Shown piece after piece: positions 1 through 12,859 of a stretch of 64,000 nt of DNA (positions within the stretch are counted from its first letter, which is position 1; each line of letters starts with the position of its first letter). The notes under the pieces are model-generated. The model saw only the letters and a list, made by a program, of their open reading frames with translations, was not told where the DNA came from and did no database searches. The stretch is from NCBI GenBank assembly GCA_964509075.1, contig CAZDWC010000008.1, forward strand, positions 33,331-97,330, written 5' to 3'. The DNA comes from an uncultured Pseudomonadales bacterium. GTDB taxonomy: Bacteria > Pseudomonadota > Gammaproteobacteria > Pseudomonadales > UBA7239. Position numbers and translations under genes: made by a program.

Positions 1-1222
1 TAAATGCATCCAGCAGGTTTTTCAGTTCCTGCACCAGAATCTGGTTGGTGAGCGCAATCGCGGCATAGGAAGCCAGCGCGGTGACCAGCGACTCCACTCG
101 ATCGGAAAAACCGGTCACCTCTCCGGTTTGCAGATCTCGCGCATTGATCAACTGCAGCACACCCACCACATCATTTTCATGATTGAGCAGCGGCACAGCC
201 AGAAAGGAACGCGAGTGATAGCCGGTTTGCTGGTCGAAGGCGCGCGTGCCGGAAAAATCGAATTCCCTGTCCGTGTAGGCATCATCAATATTGATGACCT
301 TGCGTTGCAGTGCTGCGCAAGTCACCACGTTGTGATGATTGTCCCGCCCGTCTTCCAGATACAAGGGCACAGGCGGCAGCGTGACATCCTCGCCACTGGA
401 GCCGCCCATGTTGATATTCAGGGTATCGTTCAGCACGAGTGCAAATTCCAGACGCGGCGCCTGCAAGTCATCTTTGAGCAGGTACAACGTGCCGCCGTCA
501 GCATTCGTCAGCAACTTCGCTTCACGCAGGATGCGCTCAATCAAGGCTCGCGTATTCGGCTCACTGGATAACTCAATCAGCAAATCCTTTTGTTGCTCGG
601 CCAGCATCTGGTTGTCGAGCGCAATCGCCGCAAAAACAGACAGCGCCTGTATCGCAGGTTCCAGCTCGCGCGCAAAGGGCGTGATGTCTCCGCTACGCGG
701 ATCAATGGCATTGATAAGCTGGAATACGCCGACCACACGGCCACTTTCACCAATCAGCGGCACCGCCATGAACGACTGCGAGCGATATCCCGCTTGCTGG
801 TCAAAGGCGCGCGTACCGGAAAAATCAAAACGCTTGTCCGTATAGGCATCTGCAATATTCACCAGACCGCGATGGTGATAGGCCCAGGCCGCAATGTGAT
901 GTTCGTTTGCAGTTCCTGCTTCATCCAGAAAAAGCGGCAATGGCGGGAAAATGGTTTGCTGGCGCGGATGGGTTTCTGCTGCAATGCCCAATGACTTGTT
1001 GCGCACAATCACAAAATCCAGCTGCTGGTCGCGACCATTTTCATTCTGGCGAACCAGATAGAAAGTACCGCCATCTGCACCCGTAATATCCTGCGCTTCC
1101 ATCAGGATAATTTCGCAAAGCCGATATACATCCTTGGCAGCAGTAATTTTCTGCGCTGTGCGCAACAGCCTTCGATACAGTTCGACAGGCATGTCCTTGT
1201 GCAGGGAATCGCGGGTAATCAT
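1..1222 (-). CDS. Tandem GAF-domain protein, probably GAF-GAF-HD-GYP cyclic-dinucleotide phosphodiesterase (3' part beyond window edge)
   Basis: Manual minus-strand translation is open from ATG 1222 (alternatives 1192/1243/1261) to the window edge. It has two similar GAF repeats (NIADAYTDKRFDFSGTRAFDQQAGYRSQSFMAVPL..VVGVFQLINA; NIDDAYTDREFDFSGTRAFDQQTGYHSRSFLAVPLLNHENDVVGVLQLINARD) and ends ..QELKNLLDAF, the linker usually preceding an HD-GYP domain. The HD domain itself is not visible. Confidence 0.7.
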   Translation of the reverse strand, partial: MITRDSLHKDMPVELYRRLLRTAQKITAAKDVYRLCEIILMEAQDITGADGGTFYLVRQNENGRDQQLDFVIVRNKSLGIAAETHPRQQTIFPPLPLFLDEAGTANEHHIAAWAYHHRGLVNIADAYTDKRFDFSGTRAFDQQAGYRSQSFMAVPLIGESGRVVGVFQLINAIDPRSGDITPFARELEPAIQALSVFAAIALDNQMLAEQQKDLLIELSSEPNTRALIERILREAKLLTNADGGTLYLLKDDLQAPRLEFALVLNDTLNINMGGSSGEDVTLPPVPLYLEDGRDNHHNVVTCAALQRKVINIDDAYTDREFDFSGTRAFDQQTGYHSRSFLAVPLLNHENDVVGVLQLINARDLQTGEVTGFSDRVESLVTALASYAAIALTNQILVQELKNLLDAF

Positions 1223-1325
1223 GATCGTCACACAACCAGCCATGGGATAGGTGCGGTCCATTCTAGCAGCTGCCTCGCCTTGCCCCTATACTTCCTCCCT
1301 CCCCTATCTTTCACGTCTTCATACC

Positions 1326-3551
1326 ATGCGCCTGTTCAACCGCAAGAAACTTACAGAAGTCCGCGCGATTATCGCACTGAGCTTGACCCTGACGTTTGTC
1401 ATGGCGTTGACACAATTTTCCAGCGGCAAATCCCAGGAATTGCTGCAGCGGCTGGATCTGTTGATTTACGACCTGCGTTTCAATTTGTTGCTGCCCTACA
1501 ACAAAGCCGCTGAATCGCCACAGCGCATCGTGATTGTTGATATCGACGAACGCAGCCTGAAGGAAATCGGCCACTGGCCCTGGAGTCGCAAAACCGTCGC
1601 GGCACTGGTAGACAAACTGGCTGCAGCCGGCGTGATCAGCGTGACGTTTGATGTGGTCTTTTCAGAACCGGAGCCGAATCAGGCTCTGCTACTGGCAGAC
1701 GCCACCGCAGAAGACACCACACTGGCACCCACGCTGCGCCAACTGGCTCCACAGTTTGATTACGACAACAAACTGGCCACCAGCATCAGCAAGCTGGATG
1801 TCACACTGGGCTATATCTTCCACAGCGAAGAATTTCAATCCGGCGAGCTCCCCGCCAGCAACATCGACCTCCCCTCCGATGCCGTCAACAATCTCTGGGT
1901 CAGCAAGATGTCCGGCTTCAGCACCAACATTCCCGTGTTGCAGCAAGCCGCCAGAGGCACAGGGTTCATCAACGGCCCGCCGGATCCCGATGGCATCGTG
2001 CGGCGCGCACCATTGTTCCTGCGTTATGGTGACAAGCTCTACCCCAGCCTCGCCCTGCAGACAGCCATGACCTATCTGCTGCTGGATTCTGTGAGCCCTA
2101 CTGTTGCTGTCAATCCTACCGGCACCTTTGTACAGGGCCTGCAGCTCGGCGAACACCGCATCCACACCGACGAGCGCGGCCAGATGCTGATTCCCTATCG
2201 CGGCCGCCAGGGCAGCTTCCCGTATATTCCCGCTGTCGACATCCTGAATGGCACTGCGGATCAAACACTCCTGTCAGGCAGCATTGCCATGATCGGCACC
2301 TCCGCCATCGGCCTGGTCGATCTGCGTACCACGCCGGTGGGCGCCATGTATCCCGGAATTGAAAGCCAGGCGACCCTTGTGGACGCTCTGCTGCGCGGTG
2401 AAGCCCCCTACAAACCGGATATTGCCAAGGGTCTCAACTTTATCGGCATCAGTTTGCTGGGGGTACTGCTGGCAGTGTTGATGCCCTTTCTCGGCCCCGC
2501 GCGCATGTCACTGCTCGGCCTTTCCTCACTGGCGATGGTACTGGGCGGCAATTTCTGGCTGTGGCACGCCAAGCATCTGGATCTGCCTGTTTCCAGTGTA
2601 TTGCTTACCGTATTGACGCTGTTCGTCGTCAACATGATCTTCGGCTTTCTTTCAACATCGCGCCAGAAAGACCAGATCAAGGGCATGTTTGGCCAGTATG
2701 TAGCGCCCGCCCACATCGACCGCCTGCTCGATGATCCATCCGCACTGAGCTTCGCCGGCGAGAGCAAGCAGATGACCGTCCTGTTTTCCGACATTCGCAG
2801 CTTTACCAACATGTCGGAAACGCTGTCGGCCAATGATTTGAAAAACCTGCTTAACCGCTATTTCACGCCGATGACCGAAATCATCTTTGAACAACAGGGC
2901 ACCATCGACAAATATGTCGGCGACATGATCATGGCTTTCTGGGGTGCACCACTGCACGATCCCCAGCATGAAAAAAATGCCGTCATGGCGGCATTGCTCA
3001 TGCAGCGACGTCAAGCAGATTTGCGCAAGGAATTTGCCACCATCGGCCTGCCGGAAATCCATACAGGTATCGGCATCAACACCGGCATGATGAATGTTGG
3101 CGACATGGGATCAAGCTATCGCCGCGCCTATACCGTACTGGGCGATGCCGTAAATCTCGGCTCGCGCCTGGAGAGCATCACCAAATTCTACGGCGCAGAA
3201 ATACTGGTCAGCGAGAGCACCCATGCTGCAGTAAAAAACGATTTCATCTGGCGCGAAGTCGATTACATGCAGGTCAAGGGCAAGAAAGAACCCATCCGTG
3301 TCTACGAGCCACTGGCACTACGCGAAGAAGCCGATGAAGCGCTGCTGCATCAGATCGCTCAATACGAACTGGCTCGCAGGGCCTATCTGGCAAGAGAGTG
3401 GACGGAAGCGCACAGCCTGTTTTCCGCGCTGGCCGGCGAGGCGAAAAGTTTCAGCAAACTCTGCGGAATTTATGTAGAGAGAATCGAACACTACAGAAAG
3501 GAAATACTGCCAGACGACTGGTGTGGCGTCTGGCAGCATACGGAGAAGTAG
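1326..3551 (+). CDS. CHASE2-domain class III adenylate/guanylate cyclase (probably adenylate cyclase)
   Basis: N-terminal TM helix; CHASE2 motifs (IVIVDIDERSLKEIGHWPWSR, FDVVFSEP); three TM helices; cyclase core VLFSDIRSFT, IDKYVGDMIMAFW, YTVLGDAVNLGSRLES with the Lys/Thr pair typical of ATP-using bacterial class III cyclases. Start 1326 preferred over 1251. Confidence 0.9.
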   Translation: MRLFNRKKLTEVRAIIALSLTLTFVMALTQFSSGKSQELLQRLDLLIYDLRFNLLLPYNKAAESPQRIVIVDIDERSLKEIGHWPWSRKTVAALVDKLAAAGVISVTFDVVFSEPEPNQALLLADATAEDTTLAPTLRQLAPQFDYDNKLATSISKLDVTLGYIFHSEEFQSGELPASNIDLPSDAVNNLWVSKMSGFSTNIPVLQQAARGTGFINGPPDPDGIVRRAPLFLRYGDKLYPSLALQTAMTYLLLDSVSPTVAVNPTGTFVQGLQLGEHRIHTDERGQMLIPYRGRQGSFPYIPAVDILNGTADQTLLSGSIAMIGTSAIGLVDLRTTPVGAMYPGIESQATLVDALLRGEAPYKPDIAKGLNFIGISLLGVLLAVLMPFLGPARMSLLGLSSLAMVLGGNFWLWHAKHLDLPVSSVLLTVLTLFVVNMIFGFLSTSRQKDQIKGMFGQYVAPAHIDRLLDDPSALSFAGESKQMTVLFSDIRSFTNMSETLSANDLKNLLNRYFTPMTEIIFEQQGTIDKYVGDMIMAFWGAPLHDPQHEKNAVMAALLMQRRQADLRKEFATIGLPEIHTGIGINTGMMNVGDMGSSYRRAYTVLGDAVNLGSRLESITKFYGAEILVSESTHAAVKNDFIWREVDYMQVKGKKEPIRVYEPLALREEADEALLHQIAQYELARRAYLAREWTEAHSLFSALAGEAKSFSKLCGIYVERIEHYRKEILPDDWCGVWQHTEK

Positions 3552-3554
3552 TGA

Positions 3555-4376
3555 TTACCCGCACTGACAGCAGAAATCCAGAGAGCAAGGATCGACAACC
3601 TCTTCAACGGGGGGCTCTCCATCAGCGCTGATGCCTGGCGGCTCCTCGTTGATGATGTTGATGATGTCATCACCCAGATCAAAAATGGCGCCGCCCTTGC
3701 CGTCACTGTGCCAGGTGACATTGTCCGGCAGGTTGGGCAGGATGCCGCGCAGGTAGTCGAGTACATCAGCTGGAGGCGTGGCCGGTTCGGTAGGTGCTGC
3801 ACCGGGTTTGACTATGGTGGCCAGGCCGGCAACATCCAGCCTGCGCTTGGCGCCACCACCACCGACATCAACCGCGCCTTCGCGCAGGATAACCGTGGTC
3901 GTGCCGTCCTTGCCGACGTAGACATCGTAGACCGTACCGCGAATGCCGAGCGTTGCTGTCGGCGTCTCCAGTTTGTAAGTCGACTTGTCAATGTGACCCG
4001 TGATGGTGCGCAAGCCACCCTGCACCAGAGACAACACGGCTTCGTCTTTTTTGTCACCCGATGCTTTTTGCGAATAGGCCTTGATGACAAATTCGGCGTT
4101 CGCCCCCAGCGCCACCACGGCACCGTCTTTCATACGCAGCTGCAGCTGGCTCTCGTTGCCTGTGGTGATGCGATCACCGGCATAGACTGCTGCACGGCGT
4201 GTCAATGAGCGCACGGAGTGATCTGCAGACTGTGCATTCACTGTACCCATGGCGGTGAGTACGATACCGGCTTCCTGGGATGCGGCAAACGCAGCTCGCG
4301 TAGCTGTGAGCATCAGCAACATGCCCACAAAAAGCGCATAGCGATGAAAATGTCTTGCGTACGATTTATTCAACAT
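3555..4376 (-). CDS. Periplasmic FecR-domain protein (paralog 1)
   Basis: Sec-like signal peptide (..ATRAAFA), FecR-domain motifs (GDRITTG..LQLRMKDG, TPTATLGIRGT); GGAG RBS before ATG 4376. Confidence 0.8.
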   Translation of the reverse strand: MLNKSYARHFHRYALFVGMLLMLTATRAAFAASQEAGIVLTAMGTVNAQSADHSVRSLTRRAAVYAGDRITTGNESQLQLRMKDGAVVALGANAEFVIKAYSQKASGDKKDEAVLSLVQGGLRTITGHIDKSTYKLETPTATLGIRGTVYDVYVGKDGTTTVILREGAVDVGGGGAKRRLDVAGLATIVKPGAAPTEPATPPADVLDYLRGILPNLPDNVTWHSDGKGGAIFDLGDDIINIINEEPPGISADGEPPVEEVVDPCSLDFCCQCG

Positions 4377-4398
4377 AAAAGGGTCTCCAGGACTGCGA

Positions 4399-5712
4399 TC
4401 AGAAGCTGTAACGCAGGCTGGTTTGCACCCAGCTCCGCTCATAGGAGTAGTAACCAACATCGCTGTCGTTATGACTGTAAGCGGCTTCGGTGCGCAGGCG
4501 CAGCGGACGCATCAACTGCCAATCCCAGCCCATGCTGGCCTGCTGCAGCGTATCGTCACGGGTTTCGCCAACAAAAAATGGCTCCTGCCCTTTCTGGTCA
4601 GACCACTGTTCGTACAACCGGGCAAACAGTTGATGCTGGCCACTCAACGTGTAACGCACATCGTAGAACAGGCCGCTGAACTGGCGAGCGTTGTAATCGG
4701 CATCACCATTGAGCGCATGCTCGTCACCCGCAGTCACACCCGCCGTGTGCCTGAAATCACCAAACTGGCGTTGTATGCCACCTTTCACGATGTACTGGCG
4801 CACGTCGCGCAGATCATCGTCATAGTTGAGTTCATTGGCATGAACACTGGCAAACAAATCCCAGCCCGCATAATCATGGCCCAGCCAGTCGCCAGAGAGA
4901 CCGTAAAACTGGTGATGATCGGAATCACTGATACGGTAGTCCTGCACCGCCAACGTGCCGCGCAGCATCTGCTGCCCGAGCAGATGATAGAGACTGCCGC
5001 TCATGCGGTAGCTGCTGCTGTCAAAGCGATCCGAACTGAAATTGTCGCGGTTGCCGATGCGCCCGCGCAACTCCATGCCGTTGCTGGCATCAAAAGGATG
5101 GTAGTAATCCACACCTAACTGTTCTGCATGGTACATGTCGGATTGCTTGCGAGCTTCGGGATCAATGGCCAGCGTATCCGGCTGGAAAAAGCCGCCGGCA
5201 TTGGGATTGGGCACGCTGTCATCGGATGTTGCGGAATTGATGTTGTTGTCGTGTCCGAGTGTTGCCTCAACAAAACCCATCAGCCGACCTTCATGCTGCG
5301 GTTCATTACTCATGCGCTGGTTGATTTTGCGCAGGATGTCTGCCGGCGGATTGGCCTGCTTGATCATGTCGTACTGGCGACCGGCACTCTGCTTGTCGCC
5401 AAGCTGGTAATAGGCCTCCGCCAGCGCCACACGGGCCTCTAGGTTGGCAGGATCCGCAATGACAACCCGCTCCAGCGAGAACTGTGCTTCGTTGTATTTT
5501 TTCTGCTGCAGCGCCAGCGTGCCGTACAGATAATCAAACCCGGGATCGGCTTCCCACTGCGAGCGCAACTGCTGCGCCTGTTGCCATGCCGCCTGCGTCT
5601 CGCCACCGGCGATTTTCTGTCTCAAGGATTCAAGGTCATTTTCTGAACCCGCGTATGCCATCGACACCAGCAATGACAACGCCAGCGGCGTCAATTTCGT
5701 CGCCTGTCTCAT
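4399..5712 (-). CDS. TPR-containing outer-membrane beta-barrel protein (DUF560/Slam-like)
   Basis: Signal peptide; TPR-like helices (DPGFDYLYGTLAL..FSLERVVIADPANLEARVALAEAYY); alternating beta-strands; C-terminus NDSDVGYYSYERSWVQTSLRYSF ending in Phe. Confidence 0.8.
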   Translation of the reverse strand: MRQATKLTPLALSLLVSMAYAGSENDLESLRQKIAGGETQAAWQQAQQLRSQWEADPGFDYLYGTLALQQKKYNEAQFSLERVVIADPANLEARVALAEAYYQLGDKQSAGRQYDMIKQANPPADILRKINQRMSNEPQHEGRLMGFVEATLGHDNNINSATSDDSVPNPNAGGFFQPDTLAIDPEARKQSDMYHAEQLGVDYYHPFDASNGMELRGRIGNRDNFSSDRFDSSSYRMSGSLYHLLGQQMLRGTLAVQDYRISDSDHHQFYGLSGDWLGHDYAGWDLFASVHANELNYDDDLRDVRQYIVKGGIQRQFGDFRHTAGVTAGDEHALNGDADYNARQFSGLFYDVRYTLSGQHQLFARLYEQWSDQKGQEPFFVGETRDDTLQQASMGWDWQLMRPLRLRTEAAYSHNDSDVGYYSYERSWVQTSLRYSF

Positions 5713-5755
5713 GCTTATTTCCCCCACAACTGCAAAATTTTGCGAACTATCGCAC

Positions 5756-5782
5756 AAAAAAAAGCCGCGCACTAGGCGCGGC
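5756..5782 (-). terminator. Intrinsic terminator between FecR paralog 2 and the TPR-barrel gene
   Basis: Minus strand GCCGCGC-CTAGT-GCGCGGC followed by an 8-T run. Confidence 0.75.
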
Positions 5783-5802
5783 CCTTACTCTTGCATTGGC
5801 TA

Positions 5803-6516
5803 TCACTGCGGCTCAGGGGAAACACTGCCTCCGGCACCGGCGGTATCGGTAACCACGGTGTCAGTGTTAGGTACGTAAACCGAATCTGCTTCGGTTACTT
5901 CGATTGTAGCAAGTACTGCAGCCAGCTCTGTTGGGTCAGCCGCCACCACCTCAACGCTGCCATCCGCTTTGAACACCAACTTCTGTCCGGCTGCCACAGG
6001 CACTTTCGTGCCATTGGCGAACATCACTTCCACGCTCCCGTCGGCAACGACGATAGCTAATTCCCCTGTCTCGAGAGAAAACTGAACCTGAAAAATCGTG
6101 CCCCGTATACCCAGTGTGGATACCGGCGTTTCCAGTCTGTAGGCCGATTTTTCCATCTCACCAGATATTTGCACCAAGGCGCCTTTTGCCATTTTGAGGA
6201 CAGCTTCGTCCTTGTCGTCACCCGCCGCTTTATGGCTATAGGCCGCCACAGCAAGTTCACTGTTCTCGCCCAACGACAAAACCGCTCCATCTTTCATGCG
6301 CAATTGCGCCTTGCCGTCTGCACCTGTCATCAGGACATCACCGACGTTTACGGCGCCACGGCGCTCAAGAACGCGGACAGTGCCATCCGGCGCCTTGGCA
6401 GACACCGCGCCCTGGGCTGCGAGAACAACGCCGGCATCAGCAAGCGCCAGTGCTTGCAACGGAGCCACCAAAAAAGCAGCCATTACAGCCACCAAACCCA
6501 GAATTTGCCTGCGCAT
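5803..6516 (-). CDS. Periplasmic FecR-domain protein (paralog 2)
   Basis: Signal peptide; VGDVLMTG..AQLRMKDG and TPVSTLGIRGT motifs; clearly similar to paralog 1; AGGAG RBS. Confidence 0.8.
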   Translation of the reverse strand: MRRQILGLVAVMAAFLVAPLQALALADAGVVLAAQGAVSAKAPDGTVRVLERRGAVNVGDVLMTGADGKAQLRMKDGAVLSLGENSELAVAAYSHKAAGDDKDEAVLKMAKGALVQISGEMEKSAYRLETPVSTLGIRGTIFQVQFSLETGELAIVVADGSVEVMFANGTKVPVAAGQKLVFKADGSVEVVAADPTELAAVLATIEVTEADSVYVPNTDTVVTDTAGAGGSVSPEPQ

Positions 6517-7424: not shown

Positions 7425-8216
7425 CTATTTACCCGTGAACACGGGCGGCCGCTTGGCCAAAAACGCCTGGATACCTTCCTGGCCGTCACAACAGGCGGCG
7501 AGATGGGCAATAGCTTGCCCCTCCAGCGCCATCTGCGCTTCCAGCCCGTTATCGAAACTCACTGCCAGTAATTTTTTCACCGCGCCGATAGCCTGCGTAG
7601 CACTGCTGGCCAGTTGCAGTGCCAGATCCTGCACCTCGGCCATCAGGCCATCGGCGGCGCACACTCGCGTCACCAATCCCCAGTCCAGCGCCTCTTCGGC
7701 AGACAGACGGCGATTGCTGATCATCAACTCCTGCGCGCGGCGCAAGCCGACCAGTCGTGGCAGGAAGTAGCTGGCGCCACCGTCCGGCGACAAACCGGCC
7801 GCCGTGTAAGCCATAGTGAATTTGGCTTTTTCGGAGGCAAACACAAAATCGCCCGCCATGGCCAGACTGAAACCGGCACCGGCAGCCACGCCGTTGACCG
7901 CGACAATCACCGGCACACGCATGCGCGCAAAACGGCTCACCGCTGCGTGCAGGTAAATGGTCAGCTCATGGATACGTTCGCTGATGGCATCGCCATAGCC
8001 AGCAAAGGCTTTCAGGTCGCCACCGGCAGAAAAGAAATTGCCGGCCCCGGTCAGCACAACAACGCGAATGTTTTCGTCCTGATCGCAGCGCAGCGCAACA
8101 TCCATCAATTCACGCCCCATCACCATGTCCATGCCGTTGGCGGCGTCCGGGCGATTGAGGGTAATGCGCGCGATGCCGTCGGTGACATCGAACAGCAGGC
8201 AGGTATAAGTGCTCAT
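7425..8216 (-). CDS. Enoyl-CoA hydratase/isomerase (crotonase family)
   Basis: ITLNRPDAAN, FSAGGDLK, AVNGVAAGAG, GLSPDGG crotonase motifs; start at MSTYT (8216) preferred. Confidence 0.85.
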   Translation of the reverse strand: MSTYTCLLFDVTDGIARITLNRPDAANGMDMVMGRELMDVALRCDQDENIRVVVLTGAGNFFSAGGDLKAFAGYGDAISERIHELTIYLHAAVSRFARMRVPVIVAVNGVAAGAGFSLAMAGDFVFASEKAKFTMAYTAAGLSPDGGASYFLPRLVGLRRAQELMISNRRLSAEEALDWGLVTRVCAADGLMAEVQDLALQLASSATQAIGAVKKLLAVSFDNGLEAQMALEGQAIAHLAACCDGQEGIQAFLAKRPPVFTGK

Positions 8217-8351
8217 GGGAATTACCGGATGGAAGAACGCGGCCATGCTAATGATGCGCCCGCCCGCGATCAAGCGTGATTTGAAGCCCGTGCGATTTGA
8301 AATCCTGCCCACGCCACGTATGCTGCCGACTTACATGTCGATGCGACCTCG

Positions 8352-10418
8352 ATGACTGCTACACACACACCCATCACACAGCTGCACGGGCTGGGCCCGC
8401 AACTCGCCGAAAAACTGGCGCGGCTGGATGTGCACAGCGCCGAAGATCTGCTCTGGCATTTGCCGCTGCGCTATCGCGACCTCACGCGCATCACGCCCAT
8501 CGGCGCACTGAACCTGCACAGCGAAGCGCTGGTGGAAGGCACCATACGCGCCTGCGATGTGACATTCGGGCGCCGTCGCAGCCTGCTGTGCCTGATACAG
8601 GATGGCAGTGGCACACTGGCGCTGCGTTTTTTTCATTTCTCGAAAGCACAGCAACAACAAATGCAAGCGGGCAAGAAAATTCGCGCCTGGGGCGAAGCAC
8701 GGCGCGGCGCCAGCGGACTGGAAATGGTTCACCCGGAATACCGACTGCTCGAACACGGCGAACCGCCCGCGTTGGCTGAGCGACTGACGCCGGTTTATCC
8801 GGCAACTGAAGGTTTGCAGCAAACACGCCTGCGCAAGCTGATCGAACAGGCTCTAGCCAAGCTGCAAGCTGTTACTGATTATCTTCCTGCACACTTGTTG
8901 CCGCAGCGTTTGCACATGAGCTTGCATGATGCACTACGCTACCTGCATCAACCACCAACAGATGCACCGGTTGCACAACTGCAACAAGGCAACCACCCGA
9001 CACAACAGCGCCTCGCATTTGAAGAGATGCTGGCACACCATCTCGGCCTGCTGCGTTTGCGCCAGCAACAAAAACGCGAACCCGGGATTGCCTTGACGAT
9101 CAACCAGACTCTGCACAAACAATTCCTGCAAGCATTGCCCTTTGCATTGACCTCTGCACAACAACGCGTTGTCACAGAGATCTATCGCGATCTCGAACAA
9201 GCCGAACCGATGTTGCGGCTCGTACAGGGCGACGTCGGTTCAGGAAAAACAGTTGTCGCCGCACTCGCCTGCCTGCAAGCAGCCGCGAATGGCAAGCAAG
9301 CCGCAATGATGGCACCAACCGAAATTCTCGCCGAACAACACTTCCTGCAATTCCAGCGCTGGTTTGAGGCGTTGGGTTTTCGCTGCGCGTGGCTGACTGG
9401 CAGCATCAAAAGCAAGTCGCGACGCGAAGCACTCGCAGCACTGGCCGACGGCAGTGCGCAAATCGCTATCGGCACGCACGCCTTGTTTCAAGACGAAGTT
9501 ACGTTTGCCAACCTCGCATTGGTGATTGCCGATGAGCAACATCGCTTTGGTGTGCGCCAGCGGCTGGCACTGCAACAAAAAGCCAACGGCAACGCCATGC
9601 CCCACCAGTTGCTGATGACGGCAACACCCATTCCGCGCACACTGGCGATGAGCGCCTACGCCGATCTCGATTGCTCCGTGATTGATGAGCGTCCACCGGG
9701 ACGCACACCCATACAAACCGTAGTTATCGACAACCAACGCCGGCAGGAAATCATCGAACGCATGCGCATCGCCTGCAGCGAAGGCCGGCAAGCTTACTGG
9801 GTGTGCACATTGATCGAGGAATCAGAAGTCCTGCAATGCCAGGCCGCAGAAGTAACTGCAAAGGAGTTATGTGAAGCACTACCCATGCTGCGCATCGGTC
9901 TCGTGCACGGCAAACTGAAAGCAACGGAAAAAGCCGCAATCATGGATGCGTTCAAACGCGGTGAGATAGACGTGCTGGTAGCCACCACCGTCATTGAAGT
10001 CGGCGTCGATGTTCCCAACGCCAGCCTGATGATTATTGAAAACCCGGAACGCCTTGGCCTGGCACAACTGCACCAGTTGCGCGGCCGCGTCGGCCGCGGC
10101 ACTACTGCCAGCCATTGTGTACTGCTGTACAACACGCCGCTGTCACAACACGCGCGCGAACGCCTGGCTGTCTTGCGCGACAGCGATGACGGCTTTGTGA
10201 TCGCCGAAAAAGACCTGCAATTGCGCGGCCCCGGTGAGCTGCTCGGCACAAGACAAACTGGCGACATCGCCTTTCGCATCGCCGATCTCGCACGCGATGC
10301 ACACTGGATGCCGCAGGTAAAACACTGCGCAGAAATCATGCTGCGCGATTACCCCCAACAAACGGATGCACTCATTCGTCGCTGGCTGCGCGCCGGCGAA
10401 CGCTATGCAAGAACCTGA
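8352..10418 (+). CDS. recG: ATP-dependent DNA helicase RecG
   Basis: LVQGDVGSGKT, DEQHRFG, MTATPIPRT, ATTVIEVGVDVPNAS, HQLRGRVGRG, DLQLRGPGE. Confidence 0.97.
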   Translation: MTATHTPITQLHGLGPQLAEKLARLDVHSAEDLLWHLPLRYRDLTRITPIGALNLHSEALVEGTIRACDVTFGRRRSLLCLIQDGSGTLALRFFHFSKAQQQQMQAGKKIRAWGEARRGASGLEMVHPEYRLLEHGEPPALAERLTPVYPATEGLQQTRLRKLIEQALAKLQAVTDYLPAHLLPQRLHMSLHDALRYLHQPPTDAPVAQLQQGNHPTQQRLAFEEMLAHHLGLLRLRQQQKREPGIALTINQTLHKQFLQALPFALTSAQQRVVTEIYRDLEQAEPMLRLVQGDVGSGKTVVAALACLQAAANGKQAAMMAPTEILAEQHFLQFQRWFEALGFRCAWLTGSIKSKSRREALAALADGSAQIAIGTHALFQDEVTFANLALVIADEQHRFGVRQRLALQQKANGNAMPHQLLMTATPIPRTLAMSAYADLDCSVIDERPPGRTPIQTVVIDNQRRQEIIERMRIACSEGRQAYWVCTLIEESEVLQCQAAEVTAKELCEALPMLRIGLVHGKLKATEKAAIMDAFKRGEIDVLVATTVIEVGVDVPNASLMIIENPERLGLAQLHQLRGRVGRGTTASHCVLLYNTPLSQHARERLAVLRDSDDGFVIAEKDLQLRGPGELLGTRQTGDIAFRIADLARDAHWMPQVKHCAEIMLRDYPQQTDALIRRWLRAGERYART

Positions 10419-11726: not shown

Positions 11727-12758
11727 TCAGTGAAACATCGCCTCGCTATCCAGGCCTTCTTTTTCCATTAATTCACGCAAACGGCGCAATGCCTCCATCT
11801 GGATCTGACGCACACGCTCACGTGTCAAACCAATTTCGGCACCCACTTCTTCCAGGGTGCTGACTTCATGGCCGTTAAGACCAAAGCGTCGACACAACAC
11901 CTCTTGTTGCTTGTCGGTCAGTTCATTTATCCACTGGTCGAGATGGAATCGCAAGTCACTGTCCTGCAACAACTCGGCAGGATCACTAGGGTGCTCATCG
12001 GCAATGGTATCCAGCAGCGACTTTCCAGAATCGTGACCCAAGGGTGTATCAATCGACGTGATGCGCTCGTTGAGGCTCAGCATGTATTTGACATCGGAAA
12101 CCGGTTTCTGCAGTAATGCCGCGATGTCTTCCGGGGAGGGTTCGTGATCGAGCTTCTGCGCCAACTCTCTTGCCGCACGCAAATAGACATTCAACTCTTT
12201 GACCACATGAATCGGCAAGCGAATGGTACGCGTCTGGTTCATGATGGCGCGCTCAATGGTCTGCCTTATCCACCATGTTGCGTAAGTCGAAAAGCGAAAA
12301 CCGCGCTCGGGATCAAACTTCTCCACCGCGCGGATCAGACCGAGATTGCCCTCTTCAATCAAGTCAAGCAATGGCAGGCCCCGATTCAGGTAGCGGCGTG
12401 AAATTTTCACCACCAGGCGCAGATTGCTTTCAATCATGCGCTTGCGGCCTTTCTCGTCACCCTTGAGTGCCAGGCGCGCAAAATGAACTTCTTCTTCAGC
12501 ACTTAACAGCGGGGAAAAACCGATTTCATTGAGGTAAATCTGGGTGGCATCGGATGCATGTGCAACATCCATTTCTGCATCCAGTTGTGAATGGGGGGAA
12601 AACCGCTGTGGCGCTGGCTGTGCAGCAGACACTTCGTCTACTACATCATCCATGACTTGCTCGTCGGCCGGATCAAATGCCGCCTCCGTGCCAACTACCG
12701 TAAAAAACTCGCTGTTTTCTGACAATTGCCCTGTGATATCCCTTGCCTGGAGTGCCAT
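11727..12758 (-). CDS. rpoS: RNA polymerase sigma factor RpoS
   Basis: [54 protein letters not shown]; downstream of nlpD. Confidence 0.95.
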
Positions 12759-12859
12759 AACAAAAACCTTTTCTGGTTCAGCGCATTGCATGGCGCCGGC
12801 ACACTATCGTGTCAACGCCCACCCTTCCCCGTCCCCATGGCCAATCTGTAAAACCAACT

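Follow-up and report, generated by a model that had tools for sequence, protein, structure and literature searches.

What does a CHASE2 domain sense? CHASE2 is a widespread extracytoplasmic sensor domain. Its input has been stated to be unknown (PMC5192318). The question is raised by a group of five adjoining genes at positions 1-6516 of the window, by which we mean the whole stretch of 64,000 nucleotides of DNA analyzed here (G000:C8:33331-97330), from an uncultured marine-type Pseudomonadales bacterium. The genes encode a CHASE2 adenylate cyclase, two secreted FecR-domain proteins (FecR-A and FecR-B), an outer-membrane protein with tetratricopeptide repeats (TPR) and a beta-barrel, and a tandem-GAF protein with an HD-GYP domain. 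An initial annotation, made from the DNA letters, had described these five contiguous genes and their domains and had proposed that they form a split-gene relay from barrel to FecR to CHASE2. We verified the five genes against the list of open reading frames (ORFs) and with profile scans, and all of the described domains are present. We give about an even chance to the reading that a type 11 secretion pair has here been re-used to build a single cyclic-nucleotide sensing module that spans the cell envelope. In favour of this reading are the domain set, the folds, the catalytic residues, the homology to Slam proteins, the missing export tag and the kept neighbourhood. The features of the locus, with their positions in the window, are the following.

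1-1261, minus strand: tandem-GAF and HD-GYP gene, 5' part, corresponding to 420 codons (Pfam GAF twice, HD_5)
1262-1325, no strand: divergent intergenic spacer between the GAF-HD-GYP gene and the cyclase gene (sequence inspection)
1326-3551, plus strand: receptor adenylate cyclase with CHASE2 and Guanylate_cyc domains, 741 aa (Pfam)
3555-4376, minus strand: FecR-B, 273 aa (Pfam FecR, E 4e-15)
4399-5712, minus strand: outer-membrane protein with TPR and barrel, 437 aa (AlphaFold2 model, remote homology)
5750-5786, minus strand: terminator-like hairpin in the gap between FecR-A and the barrel gene (11-bp stem and T-run)
5803-6516, minus strand: FecR-A, 237 aa (Pfam FecR, E 1.3e-13; NCBIfam retention module, 45.6 bits)

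The CHASE2 cyclase

The ORF of the cyclase opens at position 1251, and its 741 residues are counted from the ATG at 1326. The protein consists of a first transmembrane segment, a periplasmic CHASE2 domain, three further transmembrane segments, a class IIIb catalytic domain and a helical tail of about 80 residues, and it matches the Pfam families CHASE2 (E 1.4e-59) and Guanylate_cyc (E 3.8e-22). The catalytic domain aligned best with that of Pseudomonas aeruginosa CyaB (3R5G, E 7.6e-36). All six catalytic positions are kept relative to CyaB (both metal Asp residues, Lys, Thr, Asn and Arg), confirming that the catalytic set is intact as first described, and the motifs FSDIRSFT, IDKYVGDMIMA and YTVLGDAVNLGSRLES match 3R5G residue for residue. 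In class IIIb cyclases, the Lys and Thr specify ATP, and the Asn and Arg are the transition-state residues. By its sequence, the protein can be classed as an intact class IIIb adenylate cyclase with a complete site in one chain. Because this Lys/Thr site is complete within a single chain, cAMP is the likely product, and the output named in the initial annotation is also the one predicted here.

The genome contains a second CHASE2 adenylate cyclase, of 617 aa, on the minus strand at G000:C1:428108-431319 (L131:6109-9320). Its gene overlaps the gene for a secreted SH3_3 protein, after which an M48 peptidase gene follows, and no FecR or barrel gene adjoins this second locus. This shorter type of cyclase was found again within the genus.

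The barrel protein

The outer-membrane protein has a signal peptide without a lipobox, three TPR repeats, a 14-strand beta-barrel and a C-terminus that ends in ...RYSF. Its translation most likely starts at the ATG at 5712, since the hairpin covers the alternative GTG at 5772. An AlphaFold2 model built from 18 homologues, with a predicted local distance difference test (pLDDT) score of 80, shows seven helices and 14 long strands. The top solved folds for this model are the 14-strand barrels OmpG and CymA and the TPR-barrel protein BcsC, and no Slam structure is among the fold-search matches. Direct assignment with Pfam and NCBIfam returned TPR and weak BBP2_2, DUF2860 and EpsL matches only, and searching PDB sequences with the profile of the barrel yielded TPR proteins only. 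The window barrel has no match to PF04575 at E <= 1 and was also missed by a whole-genome scan with PF04575.

Kinship with the Slam proteins is nevertheless seen through intermediates. Two proteins, P0018 and one from G028, match the window barrel at E 3e-29 and 3e-27, respectively, with 26% identity, and their scores against the whole of PF04575, 35 and 39 bits, respectively, exceed its cut-off of 22. Likewise, the profile of the barrel family aligns, from the TPR to the last strand, with residues 63-441 of a Slam-like protein encoded elsewhere in the same genome (99.5%, E 2.5e-23). Because the intermediates pass PF04575 and the profile aligns with the in-genome protein, the label "DUF560-like" given in the initial annotation is right in the sense of remote homology, to which the 14-strand model can be added; as a direct PF04575 assignment it does not hold. 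By these comparisons, membership of the window barrel in the DUF560/Slam (type 11 secretion) superfamily is remote but can be demonstrated.

The in-genome Slam-like protein belongs to a gene pair at G000:C5:36578-39276 (L132:6579-7910 and 8003-9277), in which a TPR and barrel protein is followed by a cargo-like protein. The first has weak matches to TPR_Slam and PF04575; the second, of 424 aa, has a C-terminal TbpB_B_D match of 25.9 bits against a cut-off of 26. Given the TbpB_B_D domain of the downstream neighbour, this looks like a canonical type 11 secretion (Slam-cargo) pair. It adjoins genes for Mrp/Nuo-type antiporter subunits.

The FecR proteins

FecR-A and FecR-B are paralogues (41% identical), and sequence inspection indicates that each has an N-terminal Sec signal peptide without a lipobox cysteine. 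Theirs are the only FecR domains in the genome, which is 99% complete, and both lie beside a CHASE2 cyclase. In neither protein did we observe a cytoplasmic anti-sigma domain or a membrane anchor; a cleavable signal peptide is found instead. FecR-A is made up of the signal peptide, a FecR head and a short low-complexity tail, and FecR-B of the signal peptide, a FecR head, a Pro-rich hinge, a short conserved segment and a Cys-rich C-terminus. In the AlphaFold2 model of FecR-B (pLDDT 73), the head is beta-rich, and past the hinge there are one helix and a disordered tail. The head fits the periplasmic domain of a Bacteroidales anti-sigma protein (4M0N) and the cell-surface signalling domain of PupR (6OVK) with a TM-score of about 0.5 on the target and a root mean square deviation of 3 A.

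FecR-B has orthologues in all relatives and is the conserved partner of the barrel. The genus has 11 other species representatives, and none of them encodes FecR-A; the gene occupies the same position in closer metagenome relatives and is confined to one subclade. That FecR-A might be unique to the host genome is ruled out by these metagenome relatives. The Cys-rich terminus of FecR-B (window 3555-3640) reads CSLDFCCQCG in the host, where the other members of the genus have C..C.C[RK].NPY[GQ]C, and it probably forms a disulfide knot.

The wider barrel-FecR family and the cargo tag

We surveyed 80 loci from other species, 75 of which were assessable. A FecR-headed protein is encoded directly downstream of the barrel and on the same strand in 72 of the 75. 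These partners range from about 200 to 2691 aa and contain no other Pfam domain. A profile made from the last 170 residues of the long FecR-headed partners matches TbpB (E 7.7e-11), LbpB, hemophilin and GNA2132 in the PDB. A TbpB-type C-terminal 8-strand barrel is the feature that defines type 11 secretion cargo (bioRxiv 10.1101/2023.03.15.532718). We observed this barrel in 55 of the FecR-headed partners; it is missing in the window FecR proteins and in about a dozen other lineages. The cargo-barrel profile gave no match to either FecR-A or FecR-B, and the FecR-B model shows no such barrel. We considered a hidden TbpB-type barrel in the FecR tails, which the negative profile result rules out; a jackhmmer search started from the in-genome TbpB-like cargo likewise found nothing. 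As far as their sequences tell, the window FecR proteins have lost the TbpB-type barrel that is usual in most lineages.

The distribution of CHASE2 genes differs between the two kinds of partner. A CHASE2 gene lies within 9 kb in four of 12 tag-less lineages and beside two of 55 tagged pairs (Fisher p ~0.007), these being small counts with lineages collapsed by hand. CHASE2-linked pairs would tend to be those whose "cargo" is past the known recognition mode. At the same time, the pair mostly occurs without CHASE2 and its FecR partner is mostly built as canonical cargo, suggesting that barrel and FecR are at root a secretor-cargo pair.

These data bear on a simpler explanation, that the locus encodes no more than a Slam-like (type 11) pair for secretion or surface display. 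Its barrel would then export FecR-B, and perhaps FecR-A, to the surface or the medium, and the cyclase and the GAF-HD-GYP protein would be neighbours that regulate expression at most, with no relay at the protein level. The full-length alignment of the barrel family with an in-genome Slam-like protein that has a cargo-type neighbour, and the relatives that pass PF04575, are what this explanation would lead one to expect, as are the FecR-headed protein after the barrel in 72 of 75 loci, the 55 partners that end in a TbpB-type barrel, and the absence of a nearby CHASE2 gene from most barrel-FecR pairs. The window FecR proteins, however, lack the C-terminal barrel needed by all known cargo, CHASE2 adjacency recurs in several families with altered gene order, and the genetics of NsrA, discussed below, link a FecR-TPR-barrel protein to a CHASE2 cyclase. 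We consider a plain secretion pair rather improbable.

At the Pseudohongiella-type loci (L058-L077, among them L063:10142-17800), the gene after the Slam-type barrel encodes a giant FecR-headed protein, 1600-2700 aa long. These giant partners have a TbpB-type C-terminal barrel and no other Pfam domain, and they are candidates for a new class of surface-located cargo. A Gallionella metagenome-assembled genome carries three tandem barrel-FecR pairs on one strand (L102:60-9551).

The FecR heads may also be akin to domains that hold adhesins in place. The NCBIfam LapA retention module (NF033682) scores FecR-A at 45.6 bits and FecR-B at 31.4 bits, both under the family cut-off of 50, and the N-terminal part of the FecR-B model fits the anchoring domain of the Marinomonas ice-binding adhesin MpIBP (5IX9) with a TM-score of 0.80 on the target. 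In a Lap-like, inside-out flow, FecR-headed surface proteins would be anchored in the barrel with the head as a periplasmic stopper, and cytoplasmic cAMP or cyclic di-GMP (c-di-GMP), at levels that the cyclase and the HD-GYP enzyme determine, would control their retention or release. Besides the retention-module matches and the likeness to 5IX9, this arrangement would suit the giant, adhesin-like partners of up to 2691 aa found elsewhere and the HD-GYP c-di-GMP phosphodiesterase encoded in the cluster. Yet the retention-module score stays under the cut-off, no LapD- or LapG-like transducer or protease is encoded in the cluster, the tails of the window FecR proteins are just about 80 aa long, and a CHASE2 sensor outside with an enzyme inside suits an outside-in flow. 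Signalling in the inside-out direction seems to us decidedly unlikely.

Arrangement and conservation of the genes

The GAF-HD-GYP gene and the cyclase gene are divergent. The cyclase gene converges on that of FecR-B, with stop codons 3 nt apart, and FecR-B starts 22 nt past the stop codon of the barrel gene, which a strong intrinsic-terminator-like hairpin at 5760-5786 separates from FecR-A. Because of the hairpin after FecR-A and the convergence of the cyclase and FecR-B genes at stop codons 3 nt apart, the five genes make up three or four transcription units and no single operon. A simple scan of the spacer at 1262-1325 revealed no promoter consensus. Beyond FecR-A, on the same strand, are genes for a short-chain dehydrogenase/reductase (SDR) and an enoyl-CoA hydratase (ECH), and then recG.

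Conservation of the neighbourhood had been named in the initial annotation as a point to check, and the block is indeed kept within the genus and found rearranged in other families. Eleven of the 12 species of the genus share the order ECH-SDR-barrel-FecR-B, cyclase, GAF-HD-GYP-polA, and a sister genus has the same order minus ECH and SDR. At L039, from another family, the same four genes occur in another order and orientation, with the barrel and FecR followed by the cyclase and the GAF-HD-GYP gene in the same direction. A CHASE2 gene adjoins a barrel-FecR pair also in G040, G025, L096 and L121. The closest named relatives are uncultured Pseudomonadales/Cellvibrionales genomes.

Such conservation could be inherited synteny without shared function, with the five genes co-travelling in the clade as ECH, SDR and polA do. 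The entire stretch from ECH and SDR through barrel, FecR, cyclase and GAF-HD-GYP to polA is collinear across the genus, and separate transcription units with a terminator within the block fit mere co-travel. Against it, the association of barrel-FecR with CHASE2 occurs also in distant families, where it is rearranged; it has been reported in Campylobacterota, and in Rhizobiaceae a fusion lies beside cyaK. We judge synteny as the whole explanation to be very improbable.

The GAF-HD-GYP protein

The full GAF gene spans G000:C8:32342-34591 and encodes 749 aa arranged as GAF-GAF-HD_5, of which the first 420 residues alone are inside the window. The chain ends in HD_5, in agreement with the initial description of the tandem-GAF protein as a GAF/HD-GYP protein. 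The HD-GYP motifs LHDCGK and HHEKMDGSGFP are present, the latter with GFP in place of GYP. The best solved relatives are the GAF-HD-GYP enzyme PmGH (4MCW), the 3'3'-cyclic GMP-AMP (cGAMP) phosphodiesterase V-cGAP3 (5Z7C) and PA4781 (4R8Z). The GAF domains are nearest to the cyclic nucleoside monophosphate (cNMP)-binding GAFs of PDE5 and CyaB2. In the genome, cNMP-binding domains gave 13 matches.

Relative to PmGH, the HD-GYP domain is split by an insertion of about 105 residues (residues ~500-604, beyond the window). The stop codon of the GAF-HD-GYP gene overlaps the polA start by 4 nt (ATGA, L003:14012-14015); the juxtaposition of the two genes is kept in the relative G010/L047, and it suggests that the signalling gene is co-transcribed with that for DNA polymerase I.

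Comparison with known systems

The closest functional parallel is the NsrA-CyaK system of Sinorhizobium meliloti, which also involves CyaD1 and CyaD2. The initial annotation had stated that NsrA signals through CHASE2 cyclases, and this proved right and stronger than it was put. We derived the architecture of NsrA from the pSymB sequence by way of the position of cyaK: the protein is encoded directly upstream of cyaK and comprises a FecR domain (85-179), TPR (~400-606) and, towards the C-terminus, about 600 further residues. Published work places this C-terminal region in the outer membrane (PMC7529298), and CyaK needs NsrA in order to make cAMP in response to the signal (PMC7529298, PMC13001267). 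As in the window, the gene for a CHASE2 class III cyclase adjoins FecR, TPR and barrel parts. The two systems differ in that NsrA is one chain of 1200 aa and the window parts are in two or three genes, and in that the window locus has no Clr-type regulator and a GAF-HD-GYP enzyme instead. In addition, the NsrA barrel is about 600 aa long and is labelled a TonB-dependent receptor by some sources. In an alignment of NsrA with the window barrel protein, 71 columns of the last TPR repeat align (78%, E 1.8e-5). We rejected the idea that the NsrA barrel is of the same family as the window barrel, as nothing in the barrel aligns. Since the barrels are not alignable, NsrA is best classed as an analogue and not as a split orthologue. 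The term "split-gene" used in the initial annotation fits at the level of parts, because NsrA holds FecR, TPR and barrel in one chain, but it does not extend to orthology. In G024, a single 681-aa ORF (L042:7248-9290) has matches both to the FecR head and to the TPR region of the barrel protein; it may be a fusion of FecR and TPR that stands midway between the split arrangement and NsrA.

A cluster of this type is already in the literature and is not new. In Campylobacterota, clusters of genes for a CHASE2 adenylate cyclase, a phosphodiesterase, a FecR-domain protein and a TPR protein have been described and proposed to act in one pathway (mBio 2022, PMC9239204), and the cluster is proposed to spread by horizontal transfer (PMC9239204). 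These are the same four kinds of gene as in the window, a likeness drawn by domain names only. The Campylobacterota clusters belong to another phylum, the paper makes no link to type 11 secretion, and the window has a second FecR gene.

Among type 11 secretion systems (Slam1/Slam2, HrpB, DUF560/SlipAM), the N-terminal TPR and 14-strand barrel and the partner gene directly downstream are shared with the window pair. Homology is at the profile level, via intermediates, and in most lineages the partner ends in a TbpB-type 8-strand barrel. Known type 11 cargo is of the TbpB, LbpB and hemophilin types. In contrast, the window barrel is below the PF04575 threshold, both window partners are without a cargo barrel, and the N-terminal domain of the partner is a FecR head, which is not among the cargo domains in the literature searched. 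In that literature, we found no paper that treats FecR-headed proteins as cargo of a type 11 system.

A further parallel is cell-surface signalling of the FecA-FecR-FecI and PupB-PupR kind, as the FecR head folds like the periplasmic part of FecR-type anti-sigma factors (4M0N, 6OVK). In such systems, this part attaches to an outer-membrane protein from within the periplasm. The window FecR proteins differ in having no anti-sigma domain or anchor. As the initial annotation had stated, neither a TonB-dependent transducer nor a sigma factor of the extracytoplasmic function (ECF) type is near: the nearest Plug domain on the contig is more than 120 kb away from the cluster, and no ECF-type sigma factor is found on the contig. 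The proposed output of the window system would be a cyclic nucleotide. At window 11727-12791 (minus strand) lies a gene for a sigma-70 family protein of 354 aa, which has regions 1.2, 2, 3 and 4; it is of RpoS- or RpoH-like size and not of the ECF type.

Operons of Burkholderia and Pseudomonas that encode a LysM-FecR protein and a CHASE2 histidine kinase (BiofilmReg; PA4035-PA4036 type; PMC5192318) likewise place the gene for a secreted FecR-domain protein beside that for a CHASE2 sensor. They differ from the window in their histidine kinase output, in the LysM on the partner and in having no outer-membrane barrel. The existence of these operons suggests, by analogy, that FecR heads may be general partners of CHASE2 domains.

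Proposed mechanism

In the sensing module that we propose, the TPR/14-strand Slam-type barrel protein and the translationally linked FecR-B would form a complex, with FecR-A as an accessory paralogue in the subclade of the host. Because the export tag, the TbpB-type barrel, is missing, the FecR head would probably stay periplasmic, docked on the TPR/barrel protein. The docked head would then act on the periplasmic CHASE2 domain of the adjoining cyclase. The proposed action on CHASE2 is modelled on the way in which FecR/PupR heads link receptors in the outer membrane with partners in the inner membrane, and on the requirement for NsrA in the activation of CyaK. The resulting cAMP would be read by the cNMP-type tandem GAFs of the divergently encoded HD-GYP phosphodiesterase, linking the signal to the turnover of c-di-GMP (or cGAMP), and it could possibly be read also by the Crp-family proteins of the genome. 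We infer the barrel-to-FecR-to-CHASE2 relay from gene neighbourhood and analogy only, and the protein-protein contacts, the direction of signal flow, the signal and the HD-GYP substrate are inferred as well. A specific evolutionary route to such a module is that a type 11 pair turned into a transducer, in which loss of the export barrel would keep the FecR "cargo" in the periplasm, bound to the Slam-type barrel, as a ligand of CHASE2. We offer this route tentatively, as possible though doubtful.

Several observations weigh against a single sensing module. Conservation at the genus level amounts to one phylogenetic event, and it takes in the unrelated neighbours ECH, SDR and polA. In Pseudohongiella, a GAF-HD-GYP gene lies 4 kb from the barrel and the cyclase is absent; because that gene stays near the barrel without a cyclase, part of the linkage may be inherited synteny. 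The units are transcribed separately, with the cyclase convergent with FecR-B, and no Crp-type site is prominent, a Crp-box scan of the window having given 21 matches versus 32 expected. About 85% of the barrel-FecR loci are without a CHASE2 gene within 9 kb, which indicates that the barrel-FecR pair has a function of its own. The relatives of the barrel are secretors, the FecR proteins could be exported by another recognition mode, and the barrels of NsrA and the window could not be aligned by profile-profile comparison.

Implications

Clusters of this kind are known from the literature, in which their mechanism is unstudied. New here are the FecR-headed partner after the barrel, its TbpB-type tag in most lineages and the preference of CHASE2 for tag-less partners. 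Also new is the architecture read from the sequence of S. meliloti NsrA, which combines FecR, TPR and barrel in one chain.

NsrA-CyaK of S. meliloti is the only functional lead on the input of CHASE2. The window is a compact version with separate genes, whose parts could be deleted, expressed or purified one by one, and offers a clean split system for asking what CHASE2 domains sense. From the comparative data come three ideas open to testing: that FecR heads pair with CHASE2 domains, that the outer-membrane component derives from type 11 secretion proteins, and that loss of the cargo tag marks a switch from export to signalling. The cluster further suggests a route from cAMP to c-di-GMP via a cNMP-type GAF-HD-GYP enzyme. 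If a type 11 pair did become a transducer by the doubtful route outlined above, CHASE2 sensors would take their input from a partner protein with a FecR head, which would report on what happens at the outer membrane.

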